From an uncultured Chloroflexia bacterium (GTDB lineage Bacteria > Chloroflexota > Limnocylindria > Limnocylindrales > CSP1-4), in contig CAVXLA010000007.1 of assembly GCA_963762445.1 (NCBI GenBank), positions 72,546-136,545 on the forward strand: a stretch of 64,000 nt of DNA. Reading direction: 5' to 3'. The notes beneath the pieces are model-generated. The model had not been told where the DNA came from. It searched no databases and saw only the letters and a list, made by a program, of their open reading frames with translations. The position numbers and the translations under genes were made by a program. Position 1 is the first letter of the stretch. Each line of letters starts with the position of its first letter. This document shows positions 27,173 to 42,379 of this stretch, piece after piece.

Positions 27173-28906
27173 TCAGTTGCCGGCAGGCGCCGCGGAACCC
27201 GCGTCCTGCGGCCGGGACGCCACAAGCGGCCAGCGGATACCCTCCGGCACGCTGCCCTGGCCGCTGATGAACGGCGCCGTGACCGGCAGCACTTTCTCCA
27301 CGTGGCAGCGGGCGCAGTAGACCGGCTGGTGGCAGTAGGCGCAGGACTGGTTGCCCGCCTCGCGGATCGCCTGCGCGTGGTTTGTCAGCATCTCGTCGTG
27401 CTTCACGTTCACGGCGCCCGTCTGGTGGCAGTTGAGGCAGTAGTCCCGGGCATGGCACTCGCCGCAGCTCTGACTGCCAGGATCCAGGGAGGTGGCCACG
27501 TTCTTGTGGTTGAAGACGTAAAGCGGGTCGTCGTGCGTCGAGGGCGGCTCCCCGAGCGGCAGGCTGGCGACGGCGATCCCGATCTGGGGGAACGTGTGGC
27601 ACGTGTCGCACGTCGCCGGGATGACCTCCTCCTGGACGACCCCGTCCTTCACGAGGTGGTGCCCGCCGTCGTGGCAGCGGAAGCAGCCCGGGAAGTCGAG
27701 GTGGCCGAGGAAGTCGGGGTAGCTCGCGGCCGAGACCTTCATGTCCGGCGTCGCCGACAGGCGGTAGAGGATCTTGATCTGGGCGATCGCCTGGTCGATG
27801 GCGATCTTCTGCGTCGCGGCCACGGTCGGGTAGCGGAGCTCGTAGAAGCTGCGCAGCTTGTCCGCCTCGGCGTCGGCGGCCGTCGCGTCCGGGTAGATGG
27901 ACCAGAGGATCCGGAGACCCTCGCGCTTGATCCAGGGGAGCGACGGGTCGATGCGGCCGGCGGCAAGGTCGGCGTCGAGGCTGCGGCGCGGGTTGGGGAT
28001 CGGGTGGCCCACGCGGTTGTGGCAGTTAAGGCAGTCCATGGTCCGGCCCTTCTCGGCCGCCTTGAGGCGGTCGATGTCGGGCTGGACATCCTCTGACACC
28101 TCCACCTGGTCCTGGGCGACGAACTCCTTGACGGTCCCGTCGTCCTCCGTGACCGCGACGTAGTCGATCTTCTCGGCGTTCTCGTCCGGTGTCCGGAACT
28201 CGACGTGGCGGAGCACGTGCCAGTGGACGCTGCGCTTGACGTCGAAGACGTCGCCCGAGCCGGGCCGGATCATCAGGCCCACGAACTGGCGGGTGTTGGC
28301 CTCGTCCTCGGTGAAGGAGGTCCGGGTGATCAGGTTCGCCGTGGCGAGCCGCTCCAGCGAGTGGCAGCGCAGGCAGGTGTCGTTCACCGACGGCAGGGCG
28401 CTGTGGTCCGGCGGCGGCACGGGCTTGGGATAGAGCCCGGTGATCACCTGGATCAGCTGGCGGGTCCCGTTCAGCTTGGCCTTGATCCAGCCGTCGACGC
28501 CGGGCTCCACGTGGCACTCGCCGCAGGTGACGTCGCGGTGTGGTCCCGCGTCGTAGGCGGCCAGCTCGGGGCCCATCTGGTGGCAGCGCCCGCAGAAGTC
28601 GGCCGTCTCCGTCCAGTGGATGAGCGAGACGCTGGTCCAGACGCCGGCGAAGGCGAAGGCGCCCACGACGAGCAGGAGGGCGAAGATCCCGCGGCGGGTG
28701 CGCGGCAGCCGGACGTGGATCGAGCGGCCGCGGAGGCGGTGCCGCGTGGGGACCGCCGCCTCTTTCGCGGGGGCTGCCTCGCCGTCGAGGTCGGCCGCGT
28801 CGACCGGGATGCCCGCGTCGAGCTCCGTCGAGACGTCCGGGTGCGCGGCGCTCCGGGTGCCGTCGACCGGCTCGTCGGCGGGGGCAGGCGTTCCGGGCTC
28901 GCTCAT
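27173..28906 (-). CDS. Membrane-anchored decahaem c-type cytochrome with an N-terminal NapC/NirT(NrfH)-like module
   Basis: One TM helix (IFALLLVVGAFAFAGVWTSVSLI). Ten CxxCH motifs: CGRCH, CGECH, CLRCH, CLNCH, CFRCH, CDTCH, CGECH, CLNCH, CAYCH and CARCH. The first four follow the NapC/NirT arrangement directly after the TM helix. Confidence 0.85.
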   Translation of the reverse strand: MSEPGTPAPADEPVDGTRSAAHPDVSTELDAGIPVDAADLDGEAAPAKEAAVPTRHRLRGRSIHVRLPRTRRGIFALLLVVGAFAFAGVWTSVSLIHWTETADFCGRCHQMGPELAAYDAGPHRDVTCGECHVEPGVDGWIKAKLNGTRQLIQVITGLYPKPVPPPDHSALPSVNDTCLRCHSLERLATANLITRTSFTEDEANTRQFVGLMIRPGSGDVFDVKRSVHWHVLRHVEFRTPDENAEKIDYVAVTEDDGTVKEFVAQDQVEVSEDVQPDIDRLKAAEKGRTMDCLNCHNRVGHPIPNPRRSLDADLAAGRIDPSLPWIKREGLRILWSIYPDATAADAEADKLRSFYELRYPTVAATQKIAIDQAIAQIKILYRLSATPDMKVSAASYPDFLGHLDFPGCFRCHDGGHHLVKDGVVQEEVIPATCDTCHTFPQIGIAVASLPLGEPPSTHDDPLYVFNHKNVATSLDPGSQSCGECHARDYCLNCHQTGAVNVKHDEMLTNHAQAIREAGNQSCAYCHQPVYCARCHVEKVLPVTAPFISGQGSVPEGIRWPLVASRPQDAGSAAPAGN

Positions 28907-28931
28907 CTGGATGACTCCGTCGGTCGTCTCG

Positions 28932-29537
28932 TCAGCCGTTGACCAGCTGCGAGACGAGCTGATCCATGTCGGCCGGCGTCAACCGCCCGATCCGCACGTC
29001 GCGGATCGTCCCGTCGCGCCCGACGAAGAAGTGGATCGGGATGCCGTAGGTCCGGTAGAGGTCGGCGATCGTCCCCTGGGGGTCGGCCACCAGCGGGAAG
29101 GTGAAGCCCACCCGCCTCGCGTAGTCGCTGACGGCAGCCTGGTCCTCGTCGATGAAGACCCCCAGGACGGCCAGCCCCTGCGGCTGGTACTTGACGTAGG
29201 CGGCCTGGAGGTCGGTGGCCTCCGCCCGGCAGTCCGGGCACCAGCTGGCCCCGAACGTCAGCCACGTGGGCTGGCCCTTCAGGGCGGCCATGGAGACCGC
29301 CGAGCCGTCGATCGCCGTCCCCGAGAAGTCCGGGGGCGTGTCGCCGACGCGCGGGGGCGCCCCCACCGGGGCCGCGCCGGGCCGGACGTTGGGGCCGCCC
29401 GAGGGCTGGTCCACGAACCAGGCCGCGGCGACCAGGAGAACCGCCACGACGGCCAGGACGAGGACTGTCCGCAGCCGGCCCGCGCCGAGACCGGAGGGCC
29501 GCGTCGCGGGGACCGGCACTGCATCCATGAGCGTCAC
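28932..29537 (-). CDS. resA: Thiol:disulfide oxidoreductase (ResA/TlpA/CcmG-like thioredoxin)
   Basis: TM anchor plus the thioredoxin fold motif FGASWCPDCRAE. Sits in a System II ccs context. Confidence 0.85.
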   Translation of the reverse strand: MTLMDAVPVPATRPSGLGAGRLRTVLVLAVVAVLLVAAAWFVDQPSGGPNVRPGAAPVGAPPRVGDTPPDFSGTAIDGSAVSMAALKGQPTWLTFGASWCPDCRAEATDLQAAYVKYQPQGLAVLGVFIDEDQAAVSDYARRVGFTFPLVADPQGTIADLYRTYGIPIHFFVGRDGTIRDVRIGRLTPADMDQLVSQLVNG

Positions 29538-29556
29538 TCCCGTCGTCGGCCGGGGC

Positions 29557-30441
29557 TCAGCCGAGGCCGGAGTAGCTGTGGAGCCCGCCGAAGAAGAGGT
29601 TGCCGAAGTACGTCATGAGCGTGGCGCCGAAGCCGACGAGCAGGAGGATCGCCGCCTTGTTGCCCCGCCAGCCGCGGACGACGCGGGCGTGGAGGTAGGC
29701 ACCGTAGATGAACCAGGTCACGAGCGACGCGGTCTCCTTGGGGTCCCAGCCCCAGTAGCGGCCCCAGGCCACGTCGGCCCACAGGGCGCCGAGGACGATC
29801 GTGAGGGTGAGGAAGGGGAAGCCGACGACGATCGCCCGGTAGCCGATCTCGTCGAGGACCTGCGGCTTGGGGAGCCCCCAGCGGCCGGTCTCGGGCTGGA
29901 TGAGGTAGAGGAGGGCTGCCGCGAAGGCGATCGTGAAGGAGCCGTAGGCGACGATCGCCGTGGCGACGTGAACGGAGAGAAGGAGGTTGTTCTGGAGCGC
30001 CGGGACGAGCGGCTCGATGTCGGCCGGGATCGTCAGGGCGTAGCCCAGGAGGGCGAGGGCGACGGGGAATGCCAGCAGGCCCAGGACGCGCTGGTGGTAC
30101 TTGCGCTCGAACCAGAGGTAGGCGCCGAGGATCCCGAACGCGAAGGCGACGGAGAACTCGTACATGTTGGAGAAGGGCCCGTGGCCGGTGGCGATGGTGC
30201 GGAAGACGAGGCTCGCGCCCAGCAGGAGGAAGCCCAGCCACCCCAGGATCGTGGCGTAGTGCCCGATCGAGGCGGTCCGGGGCCCGGACACGAAGCCCAC
30301 GCGGCCGGTGGACATCGGCACGCCCGCGGCGGCGAGCCGGGCGGCCCGCACGCCGGAGACGGCGTAGAGGACGTACGCGATCAGGGCCAGGGCCGTCATC
30401 GCGATCCCTGCTTCGAGGGAGTAGATGGCCATCTTTTCCAT
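29557..30441 (-). CDS. ccsA: Cytochrome c biogenesis protein CcsA/ResC
   Basis: AGGAG RBS. Trp-rich haem-handling motif WGRYWGWDPKETASL. Multi-TM. Confidence 0.9.
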   Translation of the reverse strand: MEKMAIYSLEAGIAMTALALIAYVLYAVSGVRAARLAAAGVPMSTGRVGFVSGPRTASIGHYATILGWLGFLLLGASLVFRTIATGHGPFSNMYEFSVAFAFGILGAYLWFERKYHQRVLGLLAFPVALALLGYALTIPADIEPLVPALQNNLLLSVHVATAIVAYGSFTIAFAAALLYLIQPETGRWGLPKPQVLDEIGYRAIVVGFPFLTLTIVLGALWADVAWGRYWGWDPKETASLVTWFIYGAYLHARVVRGWRGNKAAILLLVGFGATLMTYFGNLFFGGLHSYSGLG

Positions 30442-30451
30442 GGTTCCGCTC

Positions 30452-31912
30452 CTAGCTCCGCGCCTGGGCCGACACGGCCTGGCGGATCTCCGTGACGATG
30501 GTGGTGAACTCGGTGTCGAAGCCGGTGTCGCGGCGGCCGACCGCAGCCAGGGAGAGGGAGGTGCCGCCGCCCGGCCGCGCCACGAGGCGGCCCCAGATGC
30601 GCCGGTACGGGACGTAGAGGCGGATGACGAACCCGACGATCAGGAGGACGCAGCCGAGCCAGACGAGGGGCGTCCCGGGGTCGTTGGCGACGCTCAGGCC
30701 GGTGAACTTGGTTTCGCGGTCGAAGGTGAAGACCAGGCCCTCGATCGTCGTCGCGACGCCCTGGTCGATCGCCTGCTGGGTCACCGCGTCGCCGGTGTCG
30801 GAGCGGTAGAGCTCCACCGCGACCTGGCCCGGCTTGACGCTCGGGTCGTTGGGTCCCGTGGTGGCCACGATCCAGGCCGTCAGGTCCTGGCCCGGGACAG
30901 TGAACGAGCCGACCTTGTTACCGCCGTTGTTGGAGGTCCAGGCGAGCGGGACGCCCTCCGAGTAGAGGGTCGAGCCGGCGGCGTCCTTCACGGTCACGAC
31001 GGCGGCCGGGCCGAAGAACGCCTGAAAGAACGACATGCCCCGGTAGCGGAGCGGCTCGTTGACCCGGACCTGCTGCTGGGCGGCGACCTGGCCGTCCTGG
31101 GTCACCGTGATGTCGCTGACGTAGTCGAGCGGGGCGCCCGTTGTCGTGTTGTAGGTGTCCTTGAAGGAGTTCAGGGTGATCGTCGCCCCGGGCACCGTCG
31201 GGATCGCGGAGGTGGCGCCCTCGGCCAGCATGAACTGCGCGTCGCGGAAGCCCCACATGGAGCCGACCAGCGCGCCGGCAAGGATCACCACGATGGCGAC
31301 GTGGGCCACCAGGCCTGCCCAGGGAGCCCAGCTGTTCCGGACGGCGTAGAGGTGGACGGTGCCGTCGTCCTCCGTGATCGTGCCGTAGTGGTGGCGCTTG
31401 AAGACCTGTCCGGCCTCGGCGAGGACCTCGTCCGGCTTCCGCTGGAAGGTCATGGCCTCGTGCTGGGGCGCGTGCTCGAAGAAGGCCGGGCCAACGTCTA
31501 CGTGCGGCTTCCGCGTCGTCCGCCAGGTGCCCGGGATCCGGTGCACGGTGCAGGCGATCAGCGACGCGGCCAGGAGGGCCCCGATGACCCGCACCCAGAC
31601 CGAGGTGAAGATCTCGAAGACCTGGAGGCGGTCCATGAGGTCCGTCCAGCCGCCGAAGCGGGGCCGGATCTCGGCCAGCCAGCCGGCCTTGGCCTGCGGG
31701 TCGTCGGAGATGCCGGCCGGCGCCTGGATGACCAGGGTCCCGACCAGCGTCAGGGCCGCGAAGACGAGCATCAGGACGAGGGCCAGCTTCATCGAGGTGA
31801 GGAAGTGCCAGAGCCTGTCCAGCGCGGAGTCCACGGCGCCCATGCGCTCGGCGGCGCCCGGGGCCGGCACCGGGCCGCCCGGGAGCTCGTGGGTAGCTGC
31901 GTTCTGGGTCAT
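30452..31912 (-). CDS. resB: Cytochrome c biogenesis protein ResB/Ccs1
   Basis: GGAGG RBS. N-terminal SMKLALVLMLVFA TM helix, a large extracytoplasmic domain and C-terminal TM helices. Position between ccdA and ccsA. Confidence 0.85.
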   Translation of the reverse strand: MTQNAATHELPGGPVPAPGAAERMGAVDSALDRLWHFLTSMKLALVLMLVFAALTLVGTLVIQAPAGISDDPQAKAGWLAEIRPRFGGWTDLMDRLQVFEIFTSVWVRVIGALLAASLIACTVHRIPGTWRTTRKPHVDVGPAFFEHAPQHEAMTFQRKPDEVLAEAGQVFKRHHYGTITEDDGTVHLYAVRNSWAPWAGLVAHVAIVVILAGALVGSMWGFRDAQFMLAEGATSAIPTVPGATITLNSFKDTYNTTTGAPLDYVSDITVTQDGQVAAQQQVRVNEPLRYRGMSFFQAFFGPAAVVTVKDAAGSTLYSEGVPLAWTSNNGGNKVGSFTVPGQDLTAWIVATTGPNDPSVKPGQVAVELYRSDTGDAVTQQAIDQGVATTIEGLVFTFDRETKFTGLSVANDPGTPLVWLGCVLLIVGFVIRLYVPYRRIWGRLVARPGGGTSLSLAAVGRRDTGFDTEFTTIVTEIRQAVSAQARS

Positions 31913-31925
31913 GCGTGTGCCTCCG

Positions 31926-32693
31926 TCAGCCGCCGAGCGGCGCCGTGATTGCCGCGAGACGCGCCAGCAGGTTGGTGACCATGAGGACGCCGAGCACGAT
32001 CAGCAAAGCCCCGCTCACGAGCGAGACGGCGCGGTGGTGGCGCCCGACCCAGCCGAGCCGGCGGGCGACCCACGTCGCGCCCATCGCGACGGCAAGGAAC
32101 GGCACGGCGAGGCCGGCCGCGTAGGCAAGGAGAAGGACGGTGCCCTGGGCCACGCTGGCGGTCGAGGATGCGAGGCCGATAATCCCGCCCAGGATCGGTC
32201 CGATGCAGGGGCTCCAGCCGGCGGCGAAGACGACGCCGAAGAGGAGCGAACGGCCGTAGCCGGGGGCCCCCACGCCGGTCCCGCCGCCGAGGGCGACGGT
32301 CCCGCCGCCAATCGTGGCGCCGCCCAGGGCCGCCCCGCCGAAGACGGGCATGGGCCGCGTGTCGCGCCATAGGGCCCGCACGTTGATCACGCCGGCGACC
32401 TGCAGCCCCAGGACCACCAGGACCGCGCCGCCGATCATGCGCAGGTACTTCGCGTTGTCGGCGAGGGCGTAGCCGATCGCCCCGATGGAGGCCCAGAAGG
32501 CGACGAAGACGATCGTGAAGCCGGCGACGAAGGCCAGGCCGTGGAGGAGACTCCGGCGGCGGTCGGCCTCGCCGGTGGCGCCCACCATGTACCCGATGTA
32601 GGCGGGCACGAGCGGCAGGCAGCACGGCGAGGCGAAGGAGACGACGCCGGCAAGGAAGGCGACGACGAGGCCGATCCCGGCCCCGACGGTCAT
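31926..32693 (-). CDS. ccdA: Cytochrome c biogenesis thiol-reductant transporter CcdA (DsbD family)
   Basis: SFASPCCLPLVPAYIGY and AGWSPCIGPILGGI, the two conserved Cys-containing TM motifs. Confidence 0.9.
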   Translation of the reverse strand: MTVGAGIGLVVAFLAGVVSFASPCCLPLVPAYIGYMVGATGEADRRRSLLHGLAFVAGFTIVFVAFWASIGAIGYALADNAKYLRMIGGAVLVVLGLQVAGVINVRALWRDTRPMPVFGGAALGGATIGGGTVALGGGTGVGAPGYGRSLLFGVVFAAGWSPCIGPILGGIIGLASSTASVAQGTVLLLAYAAGLAVPFLAVAMGATWVARRLGWVGRHHRAVSLVSGALLIVLGVLMVTNLLARLAAITAPLGG

Positions 32694-33943
32694 GGCTGGG
32701 GGCTCCCGGACGGCGCCACGGAAGGCGCCGGGCTGGCGGGGGCCGTCGATGGCGCCGGGCTGGCGGCCGGCGACGCTGCCGGAGAGCCGGCCGGGCCGGG
32801 CGAGGCCGAGGCCAAGCCGGCGATCGCCGTCAGGTGGGCCTGCACCGTCTTGGCCAGCTGGCTCCCCGGATCCAGCTCGATGACCCGGTTCCAGTGGAGC
32901 TCGACGGCCGCCAGGTCGGGCGGCTGGCGGTTGAAGTAGAGGAAGCCGAGGTCATAGTGCGCCTCGACGCTCGCCTCGTCGATGTCGAGCGCCTTCCGCC
33001 AGGCGACCTCGGCCGCGTCCTGGTCGCCGTTGTTGAAGGCGGTGGCGCCCAGGGCCAGGAAGCCGCGCGCCTTCCCGGGCTCCAGCGTGGTGACCTTGGT
33101 GAACCAGTCGCCGGCCGTGGTGAAGTCGCCGATCCGGTAGTACTCGTCGCCGAGCGCCATCAGCGAGTCGGCGTCCTTGGGGTTCGCCTGGATCTTGCCC
33201 ATCAGAGTGGCGACCTTCGCCTGGTCGAGCACCGCGGCGCTGGGCGCCGCGGTGGCTGCCGGGCTGGCGCCGGCGCCGATGCCGCCCCCGCCGCTGCCGC
33301 CGAAGCCGTAGCCGACGACGGCGACGATCCCGATGGCGGCGACCGTCGCGCCGACCAGGGCAAGGTTGCGGAAGGCCTTCGAGGCGAGAAGCTCACCGAG
33401 GGCGCTGCTGCGCGGGGCGCTCACCGGCCGCACGGCCGCGAGGGCGGCCGCCCGCTGGGCGGCGGTTCCGACGATCTCGCGGCGGGCGGACGGATCCACC
33501 TCGGCGAGCAGGGCGTCGATCTCGTCGTCGCTGACGATCCGGCGCCCGTTCTCGTCGTAGCGCGGCAGTGGTGGGGCCGGAGCTGCCGTCGCGGCGGGGG
33601 GAACCGCGACGGCAGCCGGCGCAGGGGAATCCCGGTGGGCCGGAGGTGTCGCCGACCCACCGGGAAGGACGGCCGACCGTGCGCCCGCCCCGACGAGGGC
33701 GACGGCGCGAGCGAGCGCGGCCGGGTCCGTGAGAAGTGCGTACGCCTCGTCGGCTCCGGCAGCCTGGGTCCGGGCCCAGGAGCGGAGGCCGCGCGGCGCC
33801 GCGGCGAGGTACGCGGAGACCGCCTCGTGGGCGGCCCCCAGGTCCTCGGGGGTGGCGGACGGGTCGAGGCCGAGACGGGCCAGGAGCTCGCGCTCCAGCT
33901 TCTCGGCGGGCGTCGCCCTGGGGGTGGCGGGCGACGCGCTCAT
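32690..33943 (-). CDS. Membrane-anchored TPR-repeat protein, coupled to ccdA
   Basis: ATG 33943 follows a GGGAG RBS, and the stop overlaps the ccdA start (ATGA at 32690-32693). Contains a central TM helix (NLALVGATVAAIGIVAVVGYGF), C-terminal TPR repeats (LMALGDEYYRIGDFTTAGDWFTKV...) and an Ala/Pro/Ser-rich tail. Confidence 0.65.
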   Translation of the reverse strand: MSASPATPRATPAEKLERELLARLGLDPSATPEDLGAAHEAVSAYLAAAPRGLRSWARTQAAGADEAYALLTDPAALARAVALVGAGARSAVLPGGSATPPAHRDSPAPAAVAVPPAATAAPAPPLPRYDENGRRIVSDDEIDALLAEVDPSARREIVGTAAQRAAALAAVRPVSAPRSSALGELLASKAFRNLALVGATVAAIGIVAVVGYGFGGSGGGGIGAGASPAATAAPSAAVLDQAKVATLMGKIQANPKDADSLMALGDEYYRIGDFTTAGDWFTKVTTLEPGKARGFLALGATAFNNGDQDAAEVAWRKALDIDEASVEAHYDLGFLYFNRQPPDLAAVELHWNRVIELDPGSQLAKTVQAHLTAIAGLASASPGPAGSPAASPAASPAPSTAPASPAPSVAPSGSPQP

Positions 33944-34100
33944 CGCGTCGCTCCCGCCGGGCGCGCCCACCGGGCGCGCGCTCGTGCTGCGTCCATTGCC
34001 GGTTGCCCTCGTTGCGCACCGGGTCCATGCCCGGTCCCTTGACACCTGCGGCCAATTGTCCGGGTCGCGGGCCGGTGATCCCATCTGCCGGGGGACACAA

Positions 34101-34116
34101 ATGCGCGCGCGCGCAT
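34101..34116. promoter_or_regulatory. Perfect 16-bp palindrome ATGCGCGCGCGCGCAT (alternating CG core)
   Basis: Read directly. It lies in the 309-bp gap between the octahaem gene stop (34253) and the TPR gene start (33943). Confidence 0.3.
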
Positions 34117-34252
34117 AGGTTCGGCCGATAGGGGGAGCTTTCAGGCGGTGTACCGATCGATACAGGGGGCGCCGGGCGGGCAGCCGCCCTGGGGCGGCCT
34201 GGATCATGGCCCGAGGCGACCTCGGGCGGCGGCGTCCCCCGTGCCGCCTCGC

Positions 34253-37027
34253 TCAGTAGGTCTCGCCGTCGTGAGGCCAGCCGTGGCAGATGAGCGTGCA
34301 GCTGCCGCCGGTCGCCGTCTTCGTGAACTTGATCACGCCGTTCGCGTCGGGATACGGCTCGACATTCGGCGCGAAGTTGACGAGCCCGGTGTTGGCGCGA
34401 TCCCCGGCGTTGAACGCCTGCGCCGTGGAGTGCGTGCGGAAGTGGCACTCAGCGCAGATGGCGTTGCCGCCGCCTTCCCCTGGCGAGTCGATGCTCGTGC
34501 CGCGGGGGCCGTCGCCGGCGATCGTCGACACGTGGAGATCGTGGTCGTCGAAGACCGTCATGATGGCCGTGCCGCTGCGGAAGGGGGCCTCCGCGTGGCA
34601 GACGTAGCAGAGCGCGAAGTCGGCCCCGTCGTACGCCTCGTCCCACGACTTCAGGACCCGGTCGCGGTAGTTCTGGATCAGGAGTCCGCGGTACTGGCTC
34701 GTGTGCGGCGCCAGGTCGTCGCCGGCGGCGGTCGGGCTCGTCCCGGCCGTGGGCAGGGTCGCGTTGTACTTCCGCGGATCGCCGTGGCAGTTGACGCAAC
34801 GCACGGTGCTGGCGGTCGTGAAGTTCCACTGCTTGTACGGCGAGCTGTTGTTCAGGCTCCAGGTCATCTGGTCCGAGTCGTTCGTGCCCCGCGCCTCAAC
34901 CGGGTGGTACGACGCGTTGGCCGGGTTCAGCTCGATCGCCTTGTCGAGCGCCCACGTCGATGGGAACGTAAGGTCGGGTGCCGGGAGCGTCGTGAACCCG
35001 GAGTGGCACTTCAAGCAGACCTCGTACTCCCGATCCGGCTGGGACCCGGCCGCGCCGCTGAGGAACGTGTAGGTCGGCGGCTCGCCGGGCAGGCCGTTCG
35101 CGACGGAGACGCCCGAGATCGCAACCTGCCGTCCCGAAACCGACCAGCCGTCGGTGAACTGGGTGGGCGGCGTGGCCGTCGCGTTGTGCGTGTTGTGGCA
35201 GTCCGCGCACTCGGCGTGCCGGTTCAGGGCGCCCCCGAACTCGTTGTCCTTCGCGAGCGTGTGGGCGATCGGCGCCGACGTGCTGAGCGCGTCGTGGCGG
35301 TAGTAGGCGCTCGGCACCGTGCCCGGGGTCCCGGCGCTGTTGTCGGGCACCGCCGGGTCCGTGTACTGCGCCGTCGTGACCAGGTTCGAGCCCGTGCCGT
35401 CGTGACAGGTGAAGCACATGTTCGCCAGGGGTGCCGGCCTGGCGACCAGGCCGGTGTTCTCGGCGACGTGCGACCGGTGGCAGACGGCGCAGGTGTCCGA
35501 CACCAGGGTCATGTCCGGCACGTGGAGCGACGTGAACGGGGCCGCGAGCTGGTAGCGGGTCGCGGGCGCGGTCTGGGTCGCGACCGCCAGGCGGTAGGTT
35601 GGCGTCCCGCTCGCGAGCCATGTCGTCGCCATGAGGGCGGGCGTCACCAGCGGGAAGTCGACCCCGCTCACCGCCGACGGCCGCGCGTCCACCGGGGGAC
35701 CGACCGGGATGCCGTCGCGCTGGCCCGGCGACGCAGCGAATGCCGTCCGCGATGCGCTCCAGACCTGGCCGAGCGCCGCGCCGTGGATCGGCCGGGCACC
35801 GTCGACGAGCCTGAAGTCGAAGGCCTGCCCCAGCGGGAGGGCGCGGGTGACTCTCACCGTGAACTCGACCTCGGTGAAGGAGTCGCCTGCCAGGACGAGG
35901 CCGGGAACGCGGGTCGAGCCCATGAAGCGCGCGCCGGCCGCGGGCTCCTGCGTGTCGAAGTCGCGGTCGTGGACCCGGATGGCGCTCGTCGGGATCTCCT
36001 CCGAGAGGGGACCGGGGAGGGTGCCGCGGCCGCCCGCCATCGGGCGCCACTCCACGCCGACGTAGAACGGGACCTCGATCTCGCGGCGCCCGAGGGGGAC
36101 GTCGGCATAGGCCGGCTCGCCGCCGAGGCGGAACTGGAGGCGGGGGGTGACCTCGACGGGCACCGTGTCGGCGTTGCGCAATTGGAAGCCGATCCGGAAG
36201 GTGTCGTAGCGATCGACGCCGAGCAGGGGCTCGTCGGCGGCGAGGTAGTCCACCTGGTGGCTGACGCCGCCGATACGAGCCAGCGTGACGTGTTCCACGA
36301 TGATGTCGGGCGCCACGCGCAACCCCAGGGACGCGGCGTCGAGCAGCCCACCGGCGTGCTCCAGCCGGGCCTCGAGGATCGCGTCGAAGGCGGGCCGGTT
36401 CTCCGGCGACCGGGCCGGAGCCCGCAGGCGCACCGTCTCAGTCACGCGGTCGCCGGCGGCGAGGATGCCCTCCATCCAGGTGATGGTCCCGTTGTCCGGG
36501 TCGACGGTCCCGCCGCCGGTGCCGACCGGGCTCCAGCCAGGCGGCACGATCGCGATCAGCCGCACGTCCTTGGCGCGGTCGAGCACCCGGGCCGTCAGGC
36601 CGACGGTGACGATGGATCCTGGATCGACACGGCGACGCCCGGCGGCCGGTGCGTCAGCCGACACGCTCAGGGTCCCGCGAACGACCGTTGGCGTCGGAGT
36701 GGGGCTCGGGCTGGGCGTCGGGCTCGGCGTGGGCGAGGGATCGGGCGTCGGCGTTGGCGAGGGATCGGGCGTCGGCGTTGGCGAGGGATCGGGCGTCGGC
36801 GTTGGCGAGGGATCGGGCGTCGGCGTTGGCGAGGGATCGGGCGTCGGCGTTGGCGAGGGATCGGGCGTCGGCGTTGGCGTCGGATCGACGGCCGGAGCGG
36901 GCGTGGGATCGACGGCGCCGACCGACGGGACGACCGGCGTAAAGGCGAGGACCGCCACGACCGCCACCAGCACGGCCCCGAAGACAGGACCGGCGCGGTG
37001 TTGAGCGGTCTGACGCTTGGTGATCAT
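34253..37027 (-). CDS. Large modular secreted/anchored multihaem c-type cytochrome (7 CxxCH + 1 CxxxCH)
   Basis: GGAGGA RBS and an N-terminal hydrophobic anchor/signal. (DPSPTPTP)n linker, then a non-haem region of about 450 aa. The C-terminal haem domain carries CAVCH, CFTCH, CADCH, CLKCH, CVNCH, CYVCH, CAECH and a terminal CTLICH. Confidence 0.8.
36735..36878. repeat. Perfect 24-bp tandem repeat x6 (gagggatcgggcgtcggcgttggc) inside the octahaem gene
   Basis: Six identical units start at 36735, 36759, 36783, 36807, 36831 and 36855. They encode the (PSPTPTPD)6 linker on the minus strand. Confidence 0.95.
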
Positions 37028-37144
37028 GTTGCCTGAGTCCTCCGGGGCCCCGTGGTCGCGGAAGCGACCACGGGGTTGGGAGTAGGTCCTGGCGCAACCG
37101 GCGTGGAGGTCGGCTCGCGGTGGACCGCTGGACGTTGTCTTAGG

Positions 37145-38374
37145 TCAGGGAAGAATCGGGACGGGCACGGGGCCAGCAGCAGGCTCCCCCGAGTCCGTCG
37201 GGTCGTGGCACATCTGGCACGTTCCGCGGTTGTCGACCTTGAGGAGGCGGCTGTCGGTGCTGGCGGTGGTCGACACCGGGTCGAACACGCCGCCCACGAT
37301 GTTGTCGGGGAACGCCACGTGCTGGGAGTTGTACCCGGGCATCAGGGCATTCGAGCCGTGGGCCACGTGGCACGTGGTGCACGGCCTGCTGCTCGTGGTG
37401 TCGTGCCGGTACTTGTAGATGGCGTCGGTGGTTTCGTTGCCGAACCCACTCTGGTAATACCGCGTGTGGCATGTGCTGCACCACGCGGTGATCTGGGTCT
37501 TGAAGATCGTCTTGTCGGCATTGCCGATGGGATTGTCGTAGTCGTTCCGGCTCGCGGACGTCCACGGCACGCGCTGGTGCCAGTAGTCACCGGCGGAAGC
37601 GTTGCCGACGGCAGCGACGTCAGTTGCGAGGTAGATCTGGCCGCCGGAGGCATCGGTCTGGATGACGGTGTAGTTGCGCGTGGCCCCGTTGAGGTCCGCC
37701 GCCAGCGTCGGGCCGTCGGGGACGATCGCCGGGGCCGCCAAGGGCTCGGTGAGTCCCGGCGGCGGGTTCGGTTCCGGCCTCAGGATCCGGTAGTTGCCGT
37801 TCCCGTGCGGGTTATGGCACGACCCGCACGCGAGCGTCACGACCGGCCCGGGCTCGGGCGTCGTAGAGTCGGGCCCGTTGCCCCAGGCGCGTCCCGGGGT
37901 GGTCGCGAACGTGGCGCCCGCAAGCTTCAGGTGCGCCGAGGTCGTCGGCAGTCCCGAAGCCAGGGCAGGAACCTTGCGGTTCCCGGTGGCGCTCCGCCAC
38001 GCGTCCGACGAAGCGATACGGGCGAAGACGAAGCCGCCACCGCGGAGGGCGCCGATGACGGCGGTCCCTCTGATGGTGCCAGCGCTCGCATCGCCGGCGT
38101 CGAACTGGACGCCGTCCACGACGTTGGTCGTGGCGCCGGTCCCATTGGTGCCGTGGCAAACCAGGCACAGCGTCGCCTGGTCGGTGATGAGCTGGAATTC
38201 GGCCTGCGCGGTGTGGGCCCGATGGCAGCCGGCGCAACTGTCGGACGTGAGGCCCAGGGGGCCCGAGCCGTCGTTGTTCGCTGCCACGTGAGGTCCACCA
38301 TCCGCCAGGGCCGGAATCGCGGCAAGGAACAGCCAGAGCGCGGCTCCTGCGAGCAGGAGCGTCCATCGCCTCAC
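37145..38374 (-). CDS. Secreted hexahaem c-type cytochrome (paired-CXXCH type; OmcS-like by motif context)
   Basis: AAAGGAGGTGA RBS, then GTG 38374. Signal peptide ...FLAAIPALA|DGG. Six CxxCH motifs at aa 47, 70, 183, 299, 332 and 386 (CAGCH, CLVCH, CGSCH, CSTCH, CTTCH, CQMCH). At least 8 additional His are available as distal ligands. Confidence 0.8.
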   Translation of the reverse strand: MRRWTLLLAGAALWLFLAAIPALADGGPHVAANNDGSGPLGLTSDSCAGCHRAHTAQAEFQLITDQATLCLVCHGTNGTGATTNVVDGVQFDAGDASAGTIRGTAVIGALRGGGFVFARIASSDAWRSATGNRKVPALASGLPTTSAHLKLAGATFATTPGRAWGNGPDSTTPEPGPVVTLACGSCHNPHGNGNYRILRPEPNPPPGLTEPLAAPAIVPDGPTLAADLNGATRNYTVIQTDASGGQIYLATDVAAVGNASAGDYWHQRVPWTSASRNDYDNPIGNADKTIFKTQITAWCSTCHTRYYQSGFGNETTDAIYKYRHDTTSSRPCTTCHVAHGSNALMPGYNSQHVAFPDNIVGGVFDPVSTTASTDSRLLKVDNRGTCQMCHDPTDSGEPAAGPVPVPILP

Positions 38375-38482
38375 TGTCCTCACCTCCTTTCTCTGACTCT
38401 GCGGTGTCTCGACGAATGGGCCGCCACGATCGGCGGCGAGCATCGGTCCGGCGTCACCTCCCTCTTCGTGATCCCAGGAGCC

Positions 38483-39550
38483 TCAGTAGCTCCAGATCTG
38501 CACGCGGTCGTTGAACGTGTCAGCCACGTACACGCGTCCGCGCGCGTCGACCGCGACGCTGTTGGGGTACTCGAACCGCGCGTCCCCCACGCCCTCGCCG
38601 CCGATGTAGCCGAGGAAATCGAGGCGGCGGCTGTCGTCGGTAGGTGGGCGGTAGACGAAGACGCCCTGGCCGGTCGAGTCGGCGACGAACACCCGCCTGC
38701 TGCCGTCGACGGCCAGACCGCGCGGCAGTCCGAGGTTGCCCTGGCCGGCTCCGCGGCCGATCTGGGCATGGATCGTGCCATCGGCGCCGAACATGAGCAG
38801 GCGGCCGTTGTTGCTGTCGGACACATAGACGTTGCCGGCCCCGTCGACCGCGACCCCGTTCGGGAACGAGAGCTTGCTTGTCTCGCCGAGCGTCCGGACG
38901 ACCGTGGCCGTGCGGTCGATGACGAGGACCTTCTGGAAGGGGCCCGAGAGGTCCGTCACGTACAGGTTGCCCTTGGTGTCGAAGGTCAACCCCAGGGGCT
39001 GCCAGCCCGGCCGCGGCAGCGCGAGCGTGAGCTCGCGCTGGAAAGCCCCGTCGCGGTCGTAGATGTAGATCGCCCCGGCCAGGCGGTCGCTGACGTAGAC
39101 CTCGCTCGTGAGGGGGTCAATCGCCAGGTAGACAGGCGCGTGGTCGGTCCCGGTCGCCTCTGGCGGCGCCATCGTGCCGACCTTGTTGCCGCCCGCATCG
39201 AAGACGATCCCGGTCCGATCGCCCGACGACTGGGCGACGTAGATGCGGTCGCCCGACGGGCTGACGGCCACGCCGGAGGGACGCAGGGCGCCGTAGATGG
39301 CCGTCGCGTAGGAGGGCACTTCCGTCTGCGGGATCCCCGGGAGGGGCAGAGGGGGTATCGGCTGGCGGAACAGCAGATACCAGGTGGCAATCGTCGCCAG
39401 CATTGCCAGGAGGCCCAGGAGGAGGAGCGCGACGATCGCCTTGCGGCGCCGCCGGGGCTGCGCCTCGGGCTCGCCCTCGACGGCCGGCGGGCTGGGGGTG
39501 TCGTCGGCGGCCGGGACCGGGAGGCCGTCGGTGGTCATCTCGGCGGTCAT
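38483..39550 (-). CDS. Membrane-anchored NHL-repeat beta-propeller protein
   Basis: TM helix (IVALLLLGLLAMLATIATWYLLF) followed by repeated NHL-type blades (P.GVAV...G.IYV.D..N.RI..F). Examples are PSGVAVSPSGDRIYVA, PLGLTFDTKGNLYVTD, PNGVAVDGAGNVYVSDSNNGRLLMF, PRGLAVDGSRRVFVADS and PNSVAVDARGRVYVADTFNDRVQIW. TGATG overlap with the upstream TPR gene. Confidence 0.85.
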   Translation of the reverse strand: MTAEMTTDGLPVPAADDTPSPPAVEGEPEAQPRRRRKAIVALLLLGLLAMLATIATWYLLFRQPIPPLPLPGIPQTEVPSYATAIYGALRPSGVAVSPSGDRIYVAQSSGDRTGIVFDAGGNKVGTMAPPEATGTDHAPVYLAIDPLTSEVYVSDRLAGAIYIYDRDGAFQRELTLALPRPGWQPLGLTFDTKGNLYVTDLSGPFQKVLVIDRTATVVRTLGETSKLSFPNGVAVDGAGNVYVSDSNNGRLLMFGADGTIHAQIGRGAGQGNLGLPRGLAVDGSRRVFVADSTGQGVFVYRPPTDDSRRLDFLGYIGGEGVGDARFEYPNSVAVDARGRVYVADTFNDRVQIWSY

Positions 39551-40536
39551 CAGCCGTTCCCTCCGGCCGGCGCGCCGGGCGTCGGCAGAGCGGGCAGCGA
39601 GGTCGCGCCGGGGCCGACGCGGCTCATCCCGAGACGTGCGGCGGCGTTCTGCGGGTCCTTGGCGAGCGCCTTGCCATACCAGTCGGCTGCCGTCGCGGTG
39701 TCGCCCTTCGTCTCGTACAGGAGGCCGAGGCCGATCGCCGCGTCCAGCGCGGCGTCGCCGTCCACGATCGCGAGGAGGCGAGGCTCGGCGAGCTCGGGCT
39801 TCCCACCGTTCAGGTCGGCCATGGCGCCGGCCCATTCGGCCTCGGCCGTCTTGCCGGCCTTCGTGAAGCCCTCGGCGAGCGCCGTGTACGGCTCGCTCCA
39901 GCCGATCGGCACGAAGGCGATCGCGGACCGCAGGGCGGTTTCGGCCTTGCCGGTCTCGCCGGTCGCGACGTAGGCCGTCCCGATCAGGTAGAGGGCGTCC
40001 GCGTCCGAGCGCTGGATCGCGAGGGCCTTCTCAAGGAAGGGGATTGCCTCGGCCGGCTTTGCCTGCTGCATTGCGATCGAGCCGAGGCTGTAGTACGCCG
40101 CCTCGAGCGTGGGGTCGACGTTGGCCATCTCGCCGCCCTTGGCGATGTCGACGACCGCCTGGTAGTCCTTCGCCGCGTCGTCGAGTCGGCCGAGGCCCAT
40201 GTAGGCGGCGGCGCGCCCGAACGTGGCCAGCTCGGTCTCCTTGTTCGACTCGAGGATCAGGTTGTACTGGACGATCGCGTCCTCGAAACGGCCCTTGGCG
40301 ACGTACGTGTCGGCGAGCTCACCGCGCGAGGCGACGTCGTCCGGCGTGTCGCGCACGGCCTGCTCCAGCGCGGTGAGGCGCTGGTCGACGATCGGCGTGG
40401 TGGCCGGGCGCCAGCGATCGAGCGCGTAGAAGCCCACGAAGGCGATCGTTCCGACGACGAGGAGCAGCAGAACCCGCTTGATCAGCCGGTTGAGCTGCCG
40501 ATCGTCCATCTTGGTCGGGGACGTGACCCGGAACAT
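39550..40536 (-). CDS. Membrane-anchored TPR-repeat protein
   Basis: N-terminal TM helix (VLLLLVVGTIAFVGFYAL) followed by several TPR units (GELADTYVAKGRFEDAIVQYN..., AAYYSLGSIAMQQAKPAEAIPFLEKAL..., GLLYETKGDTATAADWYGKALAKDP). The start is ATG 40536 (AGGTG RBS) or GTG 40545. Confidence 0.8.
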   Translation of the reverse strand: MFRVTSPTKMDDRQLNRLIKRVLLLLVVGTIAFVGFYALDRWRPATTPIVDQRLTALEQAVRDTPDDVASRGELADTYVAKGRFEDAIVQYNLILESNKETELATFGRAAAYMGLGRLDDAAKDYQAVVDIAKGGEMANVDPTLEAAYYSLGSIAMQQAKPAEAIPFLEKALAIQRSDADALYLIGTAYVATGETGKAETALRSAIAFVPIGWSEPYTALAEGFTKAGKTAEAEWAGAMADLNGGKPELAEPRLLAIVDGDAALDAAIGLGLLYETKGDTATAADWYGKALAKDPQNAAARLGMSRVGPGATSLPALPTPGAPAGGNG

Positions 40537-40861
40537 GTGTGGCACCTGCTGTTACGACCTGTTAGCGACGCGTTGCAGCACGGGGCGCACCGGGAGGCAC
40601 ACCCCACCGCGGGTAATGGTCGGCTGCAGGGGCGCGCGAGCCAATCCGCCGGGGGGTAGAAGATGGATACAGGCCGGGAGTCGTGCCCGCGATCCGGGCA
40701 TGTATCGGGCGGATGATGGTGCGCAGACGCGCCGCCATGGTCGGGCCCACGGGCGCCGACGATCCTCGCGGAGCCGCTGGGTTCCCGTGCCGATATGCTC
40801 TCTGTCCGCGAGTCGGGAGGGTTCGCCGCCCGGCCCGGAGAAGCCGGAGGGGCGCCGCTCG

Positions 40862-42379
40862 ATGGGCAAGGCGAGCCGCGCGAAGCGGCCGGGGATCGGG
40901 CCCGCCGCGGTCGCGGCGCGGTCCGCGCGGCCCGCGCCGGAGGCGACGGCCGTTGCCCCGGGGGCCTCCTCCACGGGGCTCGGCGGCGCGCTCGCGGGAT
41001 GGGGCTCCGGGCTCGCCTCGATCGCGGCCACGTGCTGGCTGCTCGCGCACGTCCCCGCGCTCGCCCCGGTGGCGATTCCGGCGTGGGTCGTGACGGGCCT
41101 CGCGCTCGGCGTCCTCTCGCCGTGGCTCGGGCTGCTCCTCACGATCGCGGTGGTCCCCTTCCTCGGCGGCGCGATCGAGCCGATCGCCGGCGAGGTCCTC
41201 CGCGTCATGCCGATCTACGGCGCGGCGGCGAGGGTCCTGCTCGACCGGTTCGTGCTCGGGCCACGCCTCGGCCGTGTCGGCCCGGAGGGGCCGCCGTGGT
41301 GGGTCGTCGGGGCGGCCGTCGCGGCGACCGCGCTCTACGCGTACACCGCCCAGACGGGCTTTCTGGCCGCGGGCATGGATCCGCTCTACTTCGACTCCGC
41401 CATCCGCTGGCTGGCCGGCGGTCCGATGGCGATGATGGCCGCCTGGATCGCCGCATCCCACCTGGTTGCCGGCCGGGACACGGCGCTCACCACCGTCGTG
41501 CTGGGAGCGACGGCGGCCGGCTGTGTCCTCGCCCTGGCGGCCTGGCTGGGCGCTCCCGGCGTCGACCTCCTCACCTTCCCGGGCATCGTCAACGGCCGCC
41601 TCGCCGGGCTCGGCTACCCGACCCCGACGGCCATGGGTGTGGCGATCGCCCTGCCGTTCGCGGTCGCCGCGGCGCTCCGCTGGACGCGCTGGCTCGCCTT
41701 CGGCGTCATCGGGCTCGCGCTGGTCGTGATGATTCTCACCTGGTCGCGCGGCCCGCTGATCGCCGTCGGCATCGGGACGGTGGTGGCGGTGCTCGCCAGC
41801 GGGCGCGTCGAGCGGCGCCTCCGCATCGCCGGCCTCGCGGTCGGCGCCGTCGCGCTCCTCGCCCTCGTCGTCGTGCGCTACGGGACGAGCGTCGACGCGA
41901 TCGTCGCGGCCATCGGCGGCAGCGCCGGCAGCGACGTCGACCGGGTGAACACCTGGATCGCGGCGGTCACGATCGCGATCGGGAGCCCGCTGGTGGGTGG
42001 CGGCTGGCACAGCCTGGAGCGCGTCGGCGACTTCGCCACGCGCCAGGTCGCCTACAGCCACAACATCCTCCTCCACGGCTTCGCGGAGGGAGGCATCCCG
42101 CTGGGGATCACGAACGCGACCGTGATCCTCTACTCCGCCTGGCGGACCTGGCTCGGCCGGCACACGATGGCGCCGTACCTCATCGCGGCGGTCGTCGTCT
42201 GCCTGGTCTGCGGCTTCTGGGACATGCCGCAGGTCCGGAGCTACGCCGCGGTCATGGGCGGGATCGCGCTGGGGATGGCCGCCGGCCCGCTCATCGGGCG
42301 GTCAACCGGCGGACCGGCGCCGCGCGCGGCCGGCGCTCAGGCGCTCGGGCGCGGCGTGGAGAAGTCGGCCGCGAGGTAG
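40862..42379 (+). CDS. O-antigen ligase/polymerase-like (Wzy_C family) membrane protein
   Basis: More than 10 predicted TM segments, with LTWSRGPLIAVGIG followed by an extracytoplasmic loop ending in HNILLHGFAEGG. Start at ATG 40862. The 3' end overlaps the convergent Rieske gene by 43 bp. Confidence 0.7.
   Translation: MGKASRAKRPGIGPAAVAARSARPAPEATAVAPGASSTGLGGALAGWGSGLASIAATCWLLAHVPALAPVAIPAWVVTGLALGVLSPWLGLLLTIAVVPFLGGAIEPIAGEVLRVMPIYGAAARVLLDRFVLGPRLGRVGPEGPPWWVVGAAVAATALYAYTAQTGFLAAGMDPLYFDSAIRWLAGGPMAMMAAWIAASHLVAGRDTALTTVVLGATAAGCVLALAAWLGAPGVDLLTFPGIVNGRLAGLGYPTPTAMGVAIALPFAVAAALRWTRWLAFGVIGLALVVMILTWSRGPLIAVGIGTVVAVLASGRVERRLRIAGLAVGAVALLALVVVRYGTSVDAIVAAIGGSAGSDVDRVNTWIAAVTIAIGSPLVGGGWHSLERVGDFATRQVAYSHNILLHGFAEGGIPLGITNATVILYSAWRTWLGRHTMAPYLIAAVVVCLVCGFWDMPQVRSYAAVMGGIALGMAAGPLIGRSTGGPAPRAAGAQALGRGVEKSAAR

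Follow-up and report, generated by a model that had tools for sequence, protein, structure and literature searches.

A gene for a probable octahaem cytochrome

This work concerns a multihaem cytochrome gene in a 64,000-nucleotide stretch of contig CAVXLA010000007.1 (assembly GCA_963762445.1), from an uncultured Chloroflexia bacterium of the Limnocylindria. This whole stretch is called the window below, and positions refer to it unless another contig or locus is named. The gene, an open reading frame of 924 codons plus a stop that begins with ATG, occupies positions 34253-37027 on the minus strand, the strand being absent from a first-pass annotation of the same DNA. That annotation had proposed a modular protein comprising an N-terminal signal or anchor, a Pro/Thr (PT) linker, a beta-rich region and a C-terminal haem domain with seven CXXCH motifs and one CX3CH motif, and this architecture was borne out by the sequence and by AlphaFold2 models (Table 1). 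It does not result from chance, since hundreds of homologues keep the same motif set: more than 559 homologues in one library cover the whole protein minus its linker, and a filter-free search with the haem domain alone yielded 646 clusters at 50% identity, among which 350 reached E<=1e-10. The protein combines the typical attributes of a c-type cytochrome, namely haem motifs, an N-terminal signal, and genes for ResB, CcsB, CcdA and a thioredoxin-like protein in the same cluster.

The octahaem gene is the fourth of ten co-directional genes. These encode, in order, a membrane-anchored TPR protein, a membrane-anchored NHL propeller, a secreted hexahaem cytochrome, the octahaem cytochrome, a TPR protein, CcdA, ResB, CcsB, a thioredoxin-like protein and a membrane-anchored decahaem cytochrome of the NapC/NrfH type.

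Table 1. Genes and protein features of the octahaem locus, with positions in the window and supporting evidence.
Feature	Position	Strand	Evidence or remark
Leading TPR gene	39550-40545	minus	TPR families
Membrane-anchored NHL beta-propeller gene	38483-39835	minus	Pfam NHL, 3.7e-26
Secreted hexahaem cytochrome gene, upstream neighbour	37145..38443	minus	six CXXCH
Shine-Dalgarno sequence GGAGGA	37038..37043	minus	read from sequence; 10 nt 5' of the ATG at 37027
Putative Sec-type export signal, residues 1-38	36914..37027	minus	sole hydrophobic segment; conserved pattern in long-form homologues
Pro/Thr/Ser/Asp linker, residues 39-117 (79 aa)	36677..36913	minus	six perfect PDPSPTPT units
Predicted tandem immunoglobulin (Ig)-like beta-sandwich, residues 118-426	35750..36676	minus	AlphaFold2 and Foldseek
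Connector, residues 427-500	35528..35749	minus	predicted local distance difference test (pLDDT) <50; motifs SPGQRxGxPVG and PRYRLA
Octahaem domain, residues 501-924 (424 aa)	34256..35527	minus	seven CXXCH and one CX3CH
Paired_CXXCH_1 module (CAVCHRSH...CFTCHDG), residues 510-544	35396..35500	minus	PF09699, 46.2 bits against a cut-off of 20.6
CTLICH, terminal CX3CH, residues 910-915, followed by GWPH	34283..34300	minus	invariant; predicted beta-hairpin
TPR, CcdA, ResB, CcsB, thioredoxin-like and decahaem genes	27173..34207	minus	Pfam and NCBIfam

The octahaem domain

The seven canonical motifs begin at residues 513 (CAVCH), 538 (CFTCH), 607 (CADCH), 671 (CLKCH), 744 (CVNCH), 807 (CYVCH) and 858 (CAECH), and the CX3CH motif (CTLICH) at residue 910, so that all 16 Cys of the protein sit within the eight haem motifs. 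Conservation was evaluated in an alignment of 142 homologues from at least nine phyla, which spans Chloroflexota, Actinomycetota, Myxococcota, Lentisphaerota, Nitrospirota, Acidobacteriota, Binatota, Eisenbacteria, Thermodesulfobacteriota and Aminicenantes. All seven CXXCH motifs were invariant, as were C910, C914 and H915, with a spacing of always exactly three residues. Eight additional His (520, 578, 614, 708, 775, 829, 832 and 866) were also invariant, while His 502 and 919 were more than 90% conserved. With eight attachment sites and eight invariant His of the distal type, eight bis-His haems are the best reading, and the domain thus probably binds eight covalent haems, probably all with bis-His ligation. 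The CX3CH motif, which the first-pass annotation had put forward as a possible haem site, hence passed the conservation test, being invariant family-wide in a domain with enough His for eight bis-His haems. It is moreover followed by a His four residues on, mirroring the CH-x2-3-H pattern of three canonical sites, which brings this pattern to four of the eight sites. We infer from these sequence features that the CX3CH motif carries a haem.

The paired-CXXCH search suggested by the first-pass annotation did return the expected module at the first two motifs (Table 1), the TIGR01905 version of it lying just under its cut-off (22.3 against 25.2). Besides this paired motif, no Pfam or NCBIfam family matched the haem domain above its cut-off, and the matches of a sequence-profile search against the PDB were restricted to the paired-CXXCH stretch (MtrA, OmcE-type, NrfB and NapB). 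Outside the haem sites, polar motifs such as SQYRGxLxQNYRDR and GTDIDxxGAGQGN were strongly conserved.

From a structural point of view, a first AlphaFold2 run (803-aa form, 58 sequences) gave the haem domain a pLDDT of 40-77, which rose to 88.8, with a predicted template modelling score of 0.89, when only this domain was modelled from 142 sequences. The CX3CH motif was placed in a predicted C-terminal beta-hairpin. Foldseek found no PDB entry at E<=0.001 for this model, a search that is insensitive for coil-rich haem proteins modelled without their haems, so that the novelty of the fold is provisional. This suggests a haem-domain fold that is not yet represented among solved structures.

Linker, stalk and connector

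Pro accounts for 46% of the linker, Thr for 24%, Ser for 11% and Asp for 10%, and at the DNA level the linker corresponds to a 24-bp tandem repeat (7.1 copies, 97% match, positions 36718-36887, Tandem Repeats Finder). Linkers of homologues are 35 to about 500 aa long and contain 53-90% Pro, Thr, Ser, Ala and Asp. From the linker to the first CXXCH, the haem-free region measures about 395 aa, and not about 450 aa as initially estimated; according to AlphaFold2, about 305 aa of it are all-beta at a pLDDT >90 and about 75 aa form a low-confidence connector.

The all-beta part (residues 122-426 in the model) comprises two domains, D1 (about 118-240) and D2 (about 241-426). Foldseek matched it to integrin alpha thigh and calf domains, Vibrio RbmA, the Ig-like domains of Enterococcus PrgB, the C-domains of streptococcal AgI/II and transglutaminase barrels, and no enzyme domain was found in the N-terminal region by Pfam, NCBIfam or Foldseek. 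The early description of this region as beta-sandwich-like is in line with these results, and the stalk is accordingly modelled as tandem Ig-like domains resembling adhesin and stalk domains. The more precise proposal of a CARDB/DUF11-like domain did not hold: DUF11, the sole Pfam signal in the N-terminal region, remained far below threshold (11.9 bits against 24.6, E=0.28) and CARDB gave no Pfam match there, the fold still being generically Ig-like.

This N-terminal part varies widely within the family. D1 is absent from the Actinomycetota homologues and the whole stalk from short forms, three of which (L012, L022 and L027) are just a signal peptide and a haem domain. Other homologues carry SpaA_2, Laminin_G_3, beta-helix or DUF7507 surface modules in its place. 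Since the N-terminal parts are swapped or absent among homologues, the constant functional core is the octahaem domain, and the N-terminal parts resemble the accessories for spacing or adhesion that are typical of surface proteins in Gram-positive bacteria. The 58-sequence alignment shows near-invariant P, G and Q residues in the connector, and one G without any variation; this segment, predicted to be disordered, could be a site of processing, glycosylation or partner binding.

Start site and export signal

The public gene call (P0003) is an 803-aa protein (34256-36664) that begins past the linker and is devoid of an export signal. Gene calls of many homologues likewise begin at an internal GTG or ATG just past the PT linker (M[ST][AV]DAP...). 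We prefer the 924-aa start, because c-type cytochromes need export, because the long forms share this N-terminus and because a good ribosome-binding site is present. As the public calls drop both signal peptide and linker, automated localisation predictions for the octahaem family will be wrong.

The signal consists of an n-region (KR..HR), a hydrophobic stretch (V15-F29) and a c-region (TPVVPSVGA), within the only hydrophobic segment of the protein (residues 10-41), and the pattern R-x-hydrophobic-LAFxPxxPxV[GI]A is kept at the N-terminus of long-form homologues. This segment may be either a signal that is cleaved after VGA or a signal anchor. Cleavage is favoured by the conserved V-x-A after the hydrophobic stretch and by the helix-breaking Pro upstream; this V-x-A resembles a signal peptidase I site, so that the N-terminus may be cleaved. 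The wall-spanning tether imagined in the first-pass annotation has weak support at best, as it assumes an uncleaved anchor, while the V-x-A points to cleavage. Anchoring as a lipoprotein or by a sortase was rejected: neither a C-terminal LPXTG sorting signal nor a lipobox Cys near the N-terminus was found in the protein, whose first Cys is residue 513, and there is no second transmembrane segment.

Between the hexahaem and octahaem genes, 23 nt 5' of the octahaem start, lies a perfect GC-rich inverted repeat, ccccgtggtcgc-ttcc-gcgaccacgggg (37050-37078, minus strand), with no T-run after it. As an mRNA hairpin with a stabilising or attenuating effect, it could set the ratio of hexahaem to octahaem cytochrome.

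Host envelope, family spread and phylogeny

A GC-rich monoderm host had been assumed from the sequence. No Omp85/BamA was found in the 11 genomes of the host genus (0/11), in which positive controls responded, and sortases were present in all four of its high-quality genomes. This absence of Omp85/BamA, together with the sortases, supports a monoderm envelope, and the host lineage indeed looks monoderm on these genomic grounds.

A scan of genome contigs with the single protein returned no related loci, which were found by an alignment-based scan. The same gene order was thus observed in about 40 loci of Limnocylindria-type Chloroflexota and Actinomycetota, the carriers among the latter including Dermatophilaceae, Phycicoccus, Ornithinibacter, Nanopelagicales and the cultured Intrasporangium sp. 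DVR. The leading NHL and TPR genes are kept upstream across loci, and NHL genes adjoin most of the distant homologues of the haem domain. Many carrier genomes derive from soil and freshwater metagenomes. In Intrasporangium sp. DVR (L023:8605-14694), the NHL, hexahaem, octahaem and TPR genes follow each other in the same order, and the octahaem protein has a signal, a Thr/Pro-rich linker, one beta domain and a haem domain ending in CTLTCHGKDH.

In the haem-domain tree, the monoderm sequences form one supported clade, within which the Actinomycetota make up a single clade (96% support in the Shimodaira-Hasegawa-like approximate likelihood ratio test) among Chloroflexota lineages. This topology is consistent with one transfer of the module between Chloroflexota and Actinomycetota.

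Literature searches returned no description of the octahaem family or of the cluster in Limnocylindria or Actinomycetota. The closest published mention is that of an ImcH-like cytochrome and associated c-type cytochrome genes in Intrasporangium calvum (PMC6295460).

Neighbouring genes and links to nanowire-type cytochromes

The first-pass annotation had taken the doubled CXXCH arrangement, common to the octahaem protein and its hexahaem neighbour, as a sign of shared ancestry or interaction. As an argument this is weak: BLASTP similarity between the two proteins is confined to the roughly 60 residues of the Paired_CXXCH_1 module, which is widespread and also matches MtrA, OmcE and NrfB. Shared ancestry of the whole proteins was rejected, as only the paired motif is similar. 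The evidence for a partnership lies elsewhere, namely in conserved synteny and in a fusion present in other phyla.

With regard to synteny, the loci of the monoderm clade have, with few exceptions, the hexahaem gene alongside the octahaem gene. A profile built from 23 hexahaem orthologues matched OmcS (6ef8) over about 120 residues, with E=9.4e-6, and a PDB search with the single hexahaem sequence did not find OmcS; the hexahaem neighbour may thus be a distant relative of OmcS, to which its link is weak. With regard to fusion, a complete OmcE-like tetrahaem module precedes the octahaem domain in a 12-haem protein of Ca. Desulfobia pelagia (Thermodesulfobacteriota, L079:1569-3323), whose N-terminus matches PDB 7TFS over the full length of OmcE (E=1e-28). 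Proteins of Nitrospirota, Acidobacteriota and Aminicenantes contain 11 CXXCH and the CX3CH, share N-terminal KHNLS...CxFCHTPHN motifs and appear, from these motifs, to carry the same OmcE-like fusion. The fused forms show weak homology, in their OmcE-like N-terminus, to the hexahaem protein of the window. Besides L079, such 12-haem proteins, apparently of the fused type, occur at L061, L072, L076 and L080, with NHL propeller genes nearby.

At the other end of the cluster, the decahaem protein contains ten CXXCH motifs and has NrfH as its best NCBIfam match (6e-15). The host genome (3.0 Mb, 83% complete) encodes a second ResB (C9:439565-440815) and a second CcsB (C6:237710-238330), outside the cluster and on different contigs, and the System II set of the cluster may therefore serve its own cytochromes. 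Four further multihaem open reading frames exist elsewhere in this genome. One of them, with seven CXXCH (C6:239283-240461), lies about 1 kb from the second CcsB. The three others (C10:283763-286348, C9:517431-518732 and C9:520474-521853) contain 10, 8 and 6 CXXCH, respectively, and no CX3CH was found in them. Upstream of the cluster and divergent from it, a gene for a Wzy_C/O-antigen-ligase-like membrane protein (40478-42379, plus strand) keeps that position in the closest relatives only (L001, L013, L043 and L048).

Proposed role and alternative explanations

We consider it probable that this exported octahaem cytochrome, carried by a PT linker and an Ig-like stalk, is the wall-zone or surface link of an extracellular electron transfer conduit in a monoderm, as supported by gene content, synteny and envelope type. 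In such a conduit, the NapC/NrfH-type decahaem protein would work at the outer face of the membrane, where it would oxidise menaquinol or reduce menaquinone and thereby trade electrons with the menaquinone pool. From there to the outside, or in the reverse direction, the octahaem and OmcS-like hexahaem proteins would relay electrons through or over the wall, the extracellular partner being, for instance, Fe or Mn minerals, humic substances or another cell. Scaffolding or assembly of the cytochromes may be the task of the NHL propeller and TPR proteins, and the System II of the cluster would attach 24 haems, including that of the CX3CH motif. If the N-terminal segment is an anchor, the 79-residue linker (roughly 20-25 nm when extended, a rough estimate) and the two Ig-like domains could let the haem domain reach the surface of the wall; if instead the segment is cleaved, partners or wall interactions would have to retain the protein. 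Localisation, order of the carriers, direction and substrate of electron flow are, in this scheme, what we infer.

Several points weigh against this scheme. Aerobic heterotrophy is what is usually assumed for the host lineages, and the gene has a patchy distribution in the host class, being present in 16 of 201 genomes (8 of 43 genera). Neither PDB profile searches nor Foldseek detected a relative of known function for the haem domain, and the best named match of the membrane partner is NrfH, a donor to a reductase of soluble substrates. If the signal peptide is cleaved, no sequence feature retains the octahaem protein at the cell. Finally, deletion of comparable NHL-associated cytochrome clusters in D. 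ferrophilus did not eliminate Fe(III) oxide reduction (PMC9769857).

A bolder proposal, which we offer tentatively and which may well not hold, is that the octahaem domain is a structurally novel module, with a terminal CX3CH haem, dedicated to partnership with nanowire-type cytochromes in at least nine phyla; in monoderms, where a PT linker of variable length and an Ig-like stalk carry it, it would act as a wall-crossing base, charging station or tethered shuttle for a cytochrome wire. This is based on the OmcE-like fusion in diderm phyla, on the adjacent OmcS-like gene in monoderms and on the nearly constant presence of NHL propellers. Were it true, aerobic-looking soil Chloroflexota and Actinomycetota would gain a mobile kit for extracellular respiration.

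Among the alternatives, it seems unlikely to us that the main task of the octahaem protein, in place of free terminal reduction, is to serve as base, cap or charging adaptor for a filament of polymerised OmcS-like hexahaem protein running through the wall. The adjacency of the two genes in the monoderm clade and the fusion to a full OmcE-like module in other phyla are in line with this role. So are two conserved His (502 and 919) beyond the needs of eight bis-His haems, which could give inter-subunit ligation as in OmcS. Moreover, omcS has NHL and TPR genes beside it in the Geobacter osc operon too, and a part in folding and secreting the nanowire has been proposed for them (PMC13194489, citing Shen et al. 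2025). However, the link between the hexahaem protein and OmcS depends on the profile match described above, the single sequence giving nothing, and short forms exist that have neither linker nor stalk.

We judge it quite improbable that the protein is the catalytic subunit of a respiratory reductase or oxidase of a soluble substrate (e.g., a nitrogen or sulfur oxyanion), located at the outer face of the membrane and fed by the NrfH-like decahaem. NrfH feeds NrfA, and the octahaem enzymes OTR, ONR and MccA are models for such a function. Eight haems with one non-canonical motif recall MccA (CX15CH), and the NrfH match of the decahaem partner and the conserved polar motifs outside the haem sites would also suit an enzyme. 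However, neither sequence nor fold similarity to NrfA, ONR/TvNiR, OTR, HAO or MccA was detected in the PDB (NrfA, E=2.5) and, with eight invariant distal-type His for eight haems, a sixth ligand is not obviously missing at any of them. An architecture of linker, Ig-like stalk and variable adhesin-type modules is more in keeping with a surface protein than with an enzyme docked on a membrane quinol dehydrogenase, and the OmcE-like fusion and OmcS-like neighbour lean in that direction too.

A heptahaem protein, in which the terminal motif, without haem, forms a Cys2-His(2) metal site or a disulfide stabilising a hairpin, has very little chance of being right: C-x3-C-H-x3-H does lie in a predicted beta-hairpin, and not in the helical turn typical of CXXCH, and maturation of CX3CH sites by System II is without demonstration in these organisms, but the Cys-His dyad and its exact spacing are invariant in at least nine phyla, the following His mirrors canonical sites, the eight invariant distal-type His fit eight haems and not seven, and in ImcH and some CymA homologues a CX3CH motif is likewise a proposed haem site (PMC6295460).

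Returning to the conduit that we favour, its interest lies in both physiology and biochemistry. The octahaem family and the ten-gene module are common in metagenomes, with more than 600 clusters at 50% identity. To our knowledge, the mechanism of extracellular electron transfer without an outer membrane is known from a few thermophilic Firmicutes only, and metal or humic respiration is not usually associated with Limnocylindria-type Chloroflexota and Actinomycetota. Should the module function as proposed, more organisms would couple carbon turnover to the redox cycling of iron, manganese and humic substances, and the haem domain would provide a new fold with a natural CX3CH site matured by System II. 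As at least one cultured Intrasporangium strain possesses the cluster, experimental testing is possible.

Comparison with known systems

MtrC and OmcA are surface-exposed terminal electron-transfer proteins with beta-barrel domains. The octahaem protein shares with these decahaems a weak profile similarity (PF22113, MtrC/MtrF domain II/IV) over its first four or so haem sites, at 18.7 bits, below the cut-off of 30, which some homologues just pass, P0008 for instance with 31.8 bits. It differs from them in haem count and domain order, and Foldseek of the octahaem model did not retrieve MtrC, MtrF or OmcA. With OmcE and OmcS (PDB 7TFS and 6EF8), the octahaem protein shares the Paired_CXXCH_1 module formed by its first two haem motifs. 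By contrast, outside these roughly 40 residues, the octahaem domain is without detectable similarity to them: only the paired-CXXCH stretch aligns (7tfs, 9yuq) instead of the full length, and polymerisation is indicated by no result.

A comparable case is OcwA of Thermincola potens (PDB 6I5B), with related surface multihaem cytochromes of Gram-positive metal reducers: likewise exported multihaem proteins of monoderms, they are proposed as wall or surface members of a chain from a quinol-oxidising multihaem cytochrome in the membrane to extracellular acceptors (PMC6703420, PMC7829351). OcwA gave no match to the octahaem protein by PDB profile search or Foldseek. It has nine haems, whereas the present protein has eight, with a terminal CX3CH, as well as a PT linker and an Ig-like stalk; it comes from thermophilic Firmicutes, whereas the octahaem gene belongs to Chloroflexota and Actinomycetota and to a cluster with NHL, TPR and System II genes.

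With respect to such clusters, a role in extracellular electron transfer has been proposed for NHL-multihaem gene sets of D. ferrophilus (DFE_0448-0451 and DFE_0461-0465; PMC9769857) and, as Uet, of Ca. Tenderia (PMC10734462), and in the Geobacter osc (omcS companion) operon the NHL/TPR-type products have folding and secretion of the nanowire as their proposed function (PMC13194489, citing Shen et al. 2025). These systems resemble the present cluster in that multihaem cytochromes, including an OmcS-like one, are grouped with NHL and TPR-type helpers, a comparison of gene content and not of orthology of the octahaem protein. They differ in being diderm, with outer-membrane or porin parts, whereas the present cluster has no outer membrane to cross and contains its own System II genes and a NapC-type decahaem. 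Within the literature searched, there appears to be no description of this family of haem domains, of the invariant CX3CH at its end, of its modular presentation by PT linker and Ig-like stalk or of its spread in soil Chloroflexota and Actinomycetota, while a monoderm surface multihaem cytochrome within an NHL/TPR-assisted electron-transfer cluster is of an already known kind.

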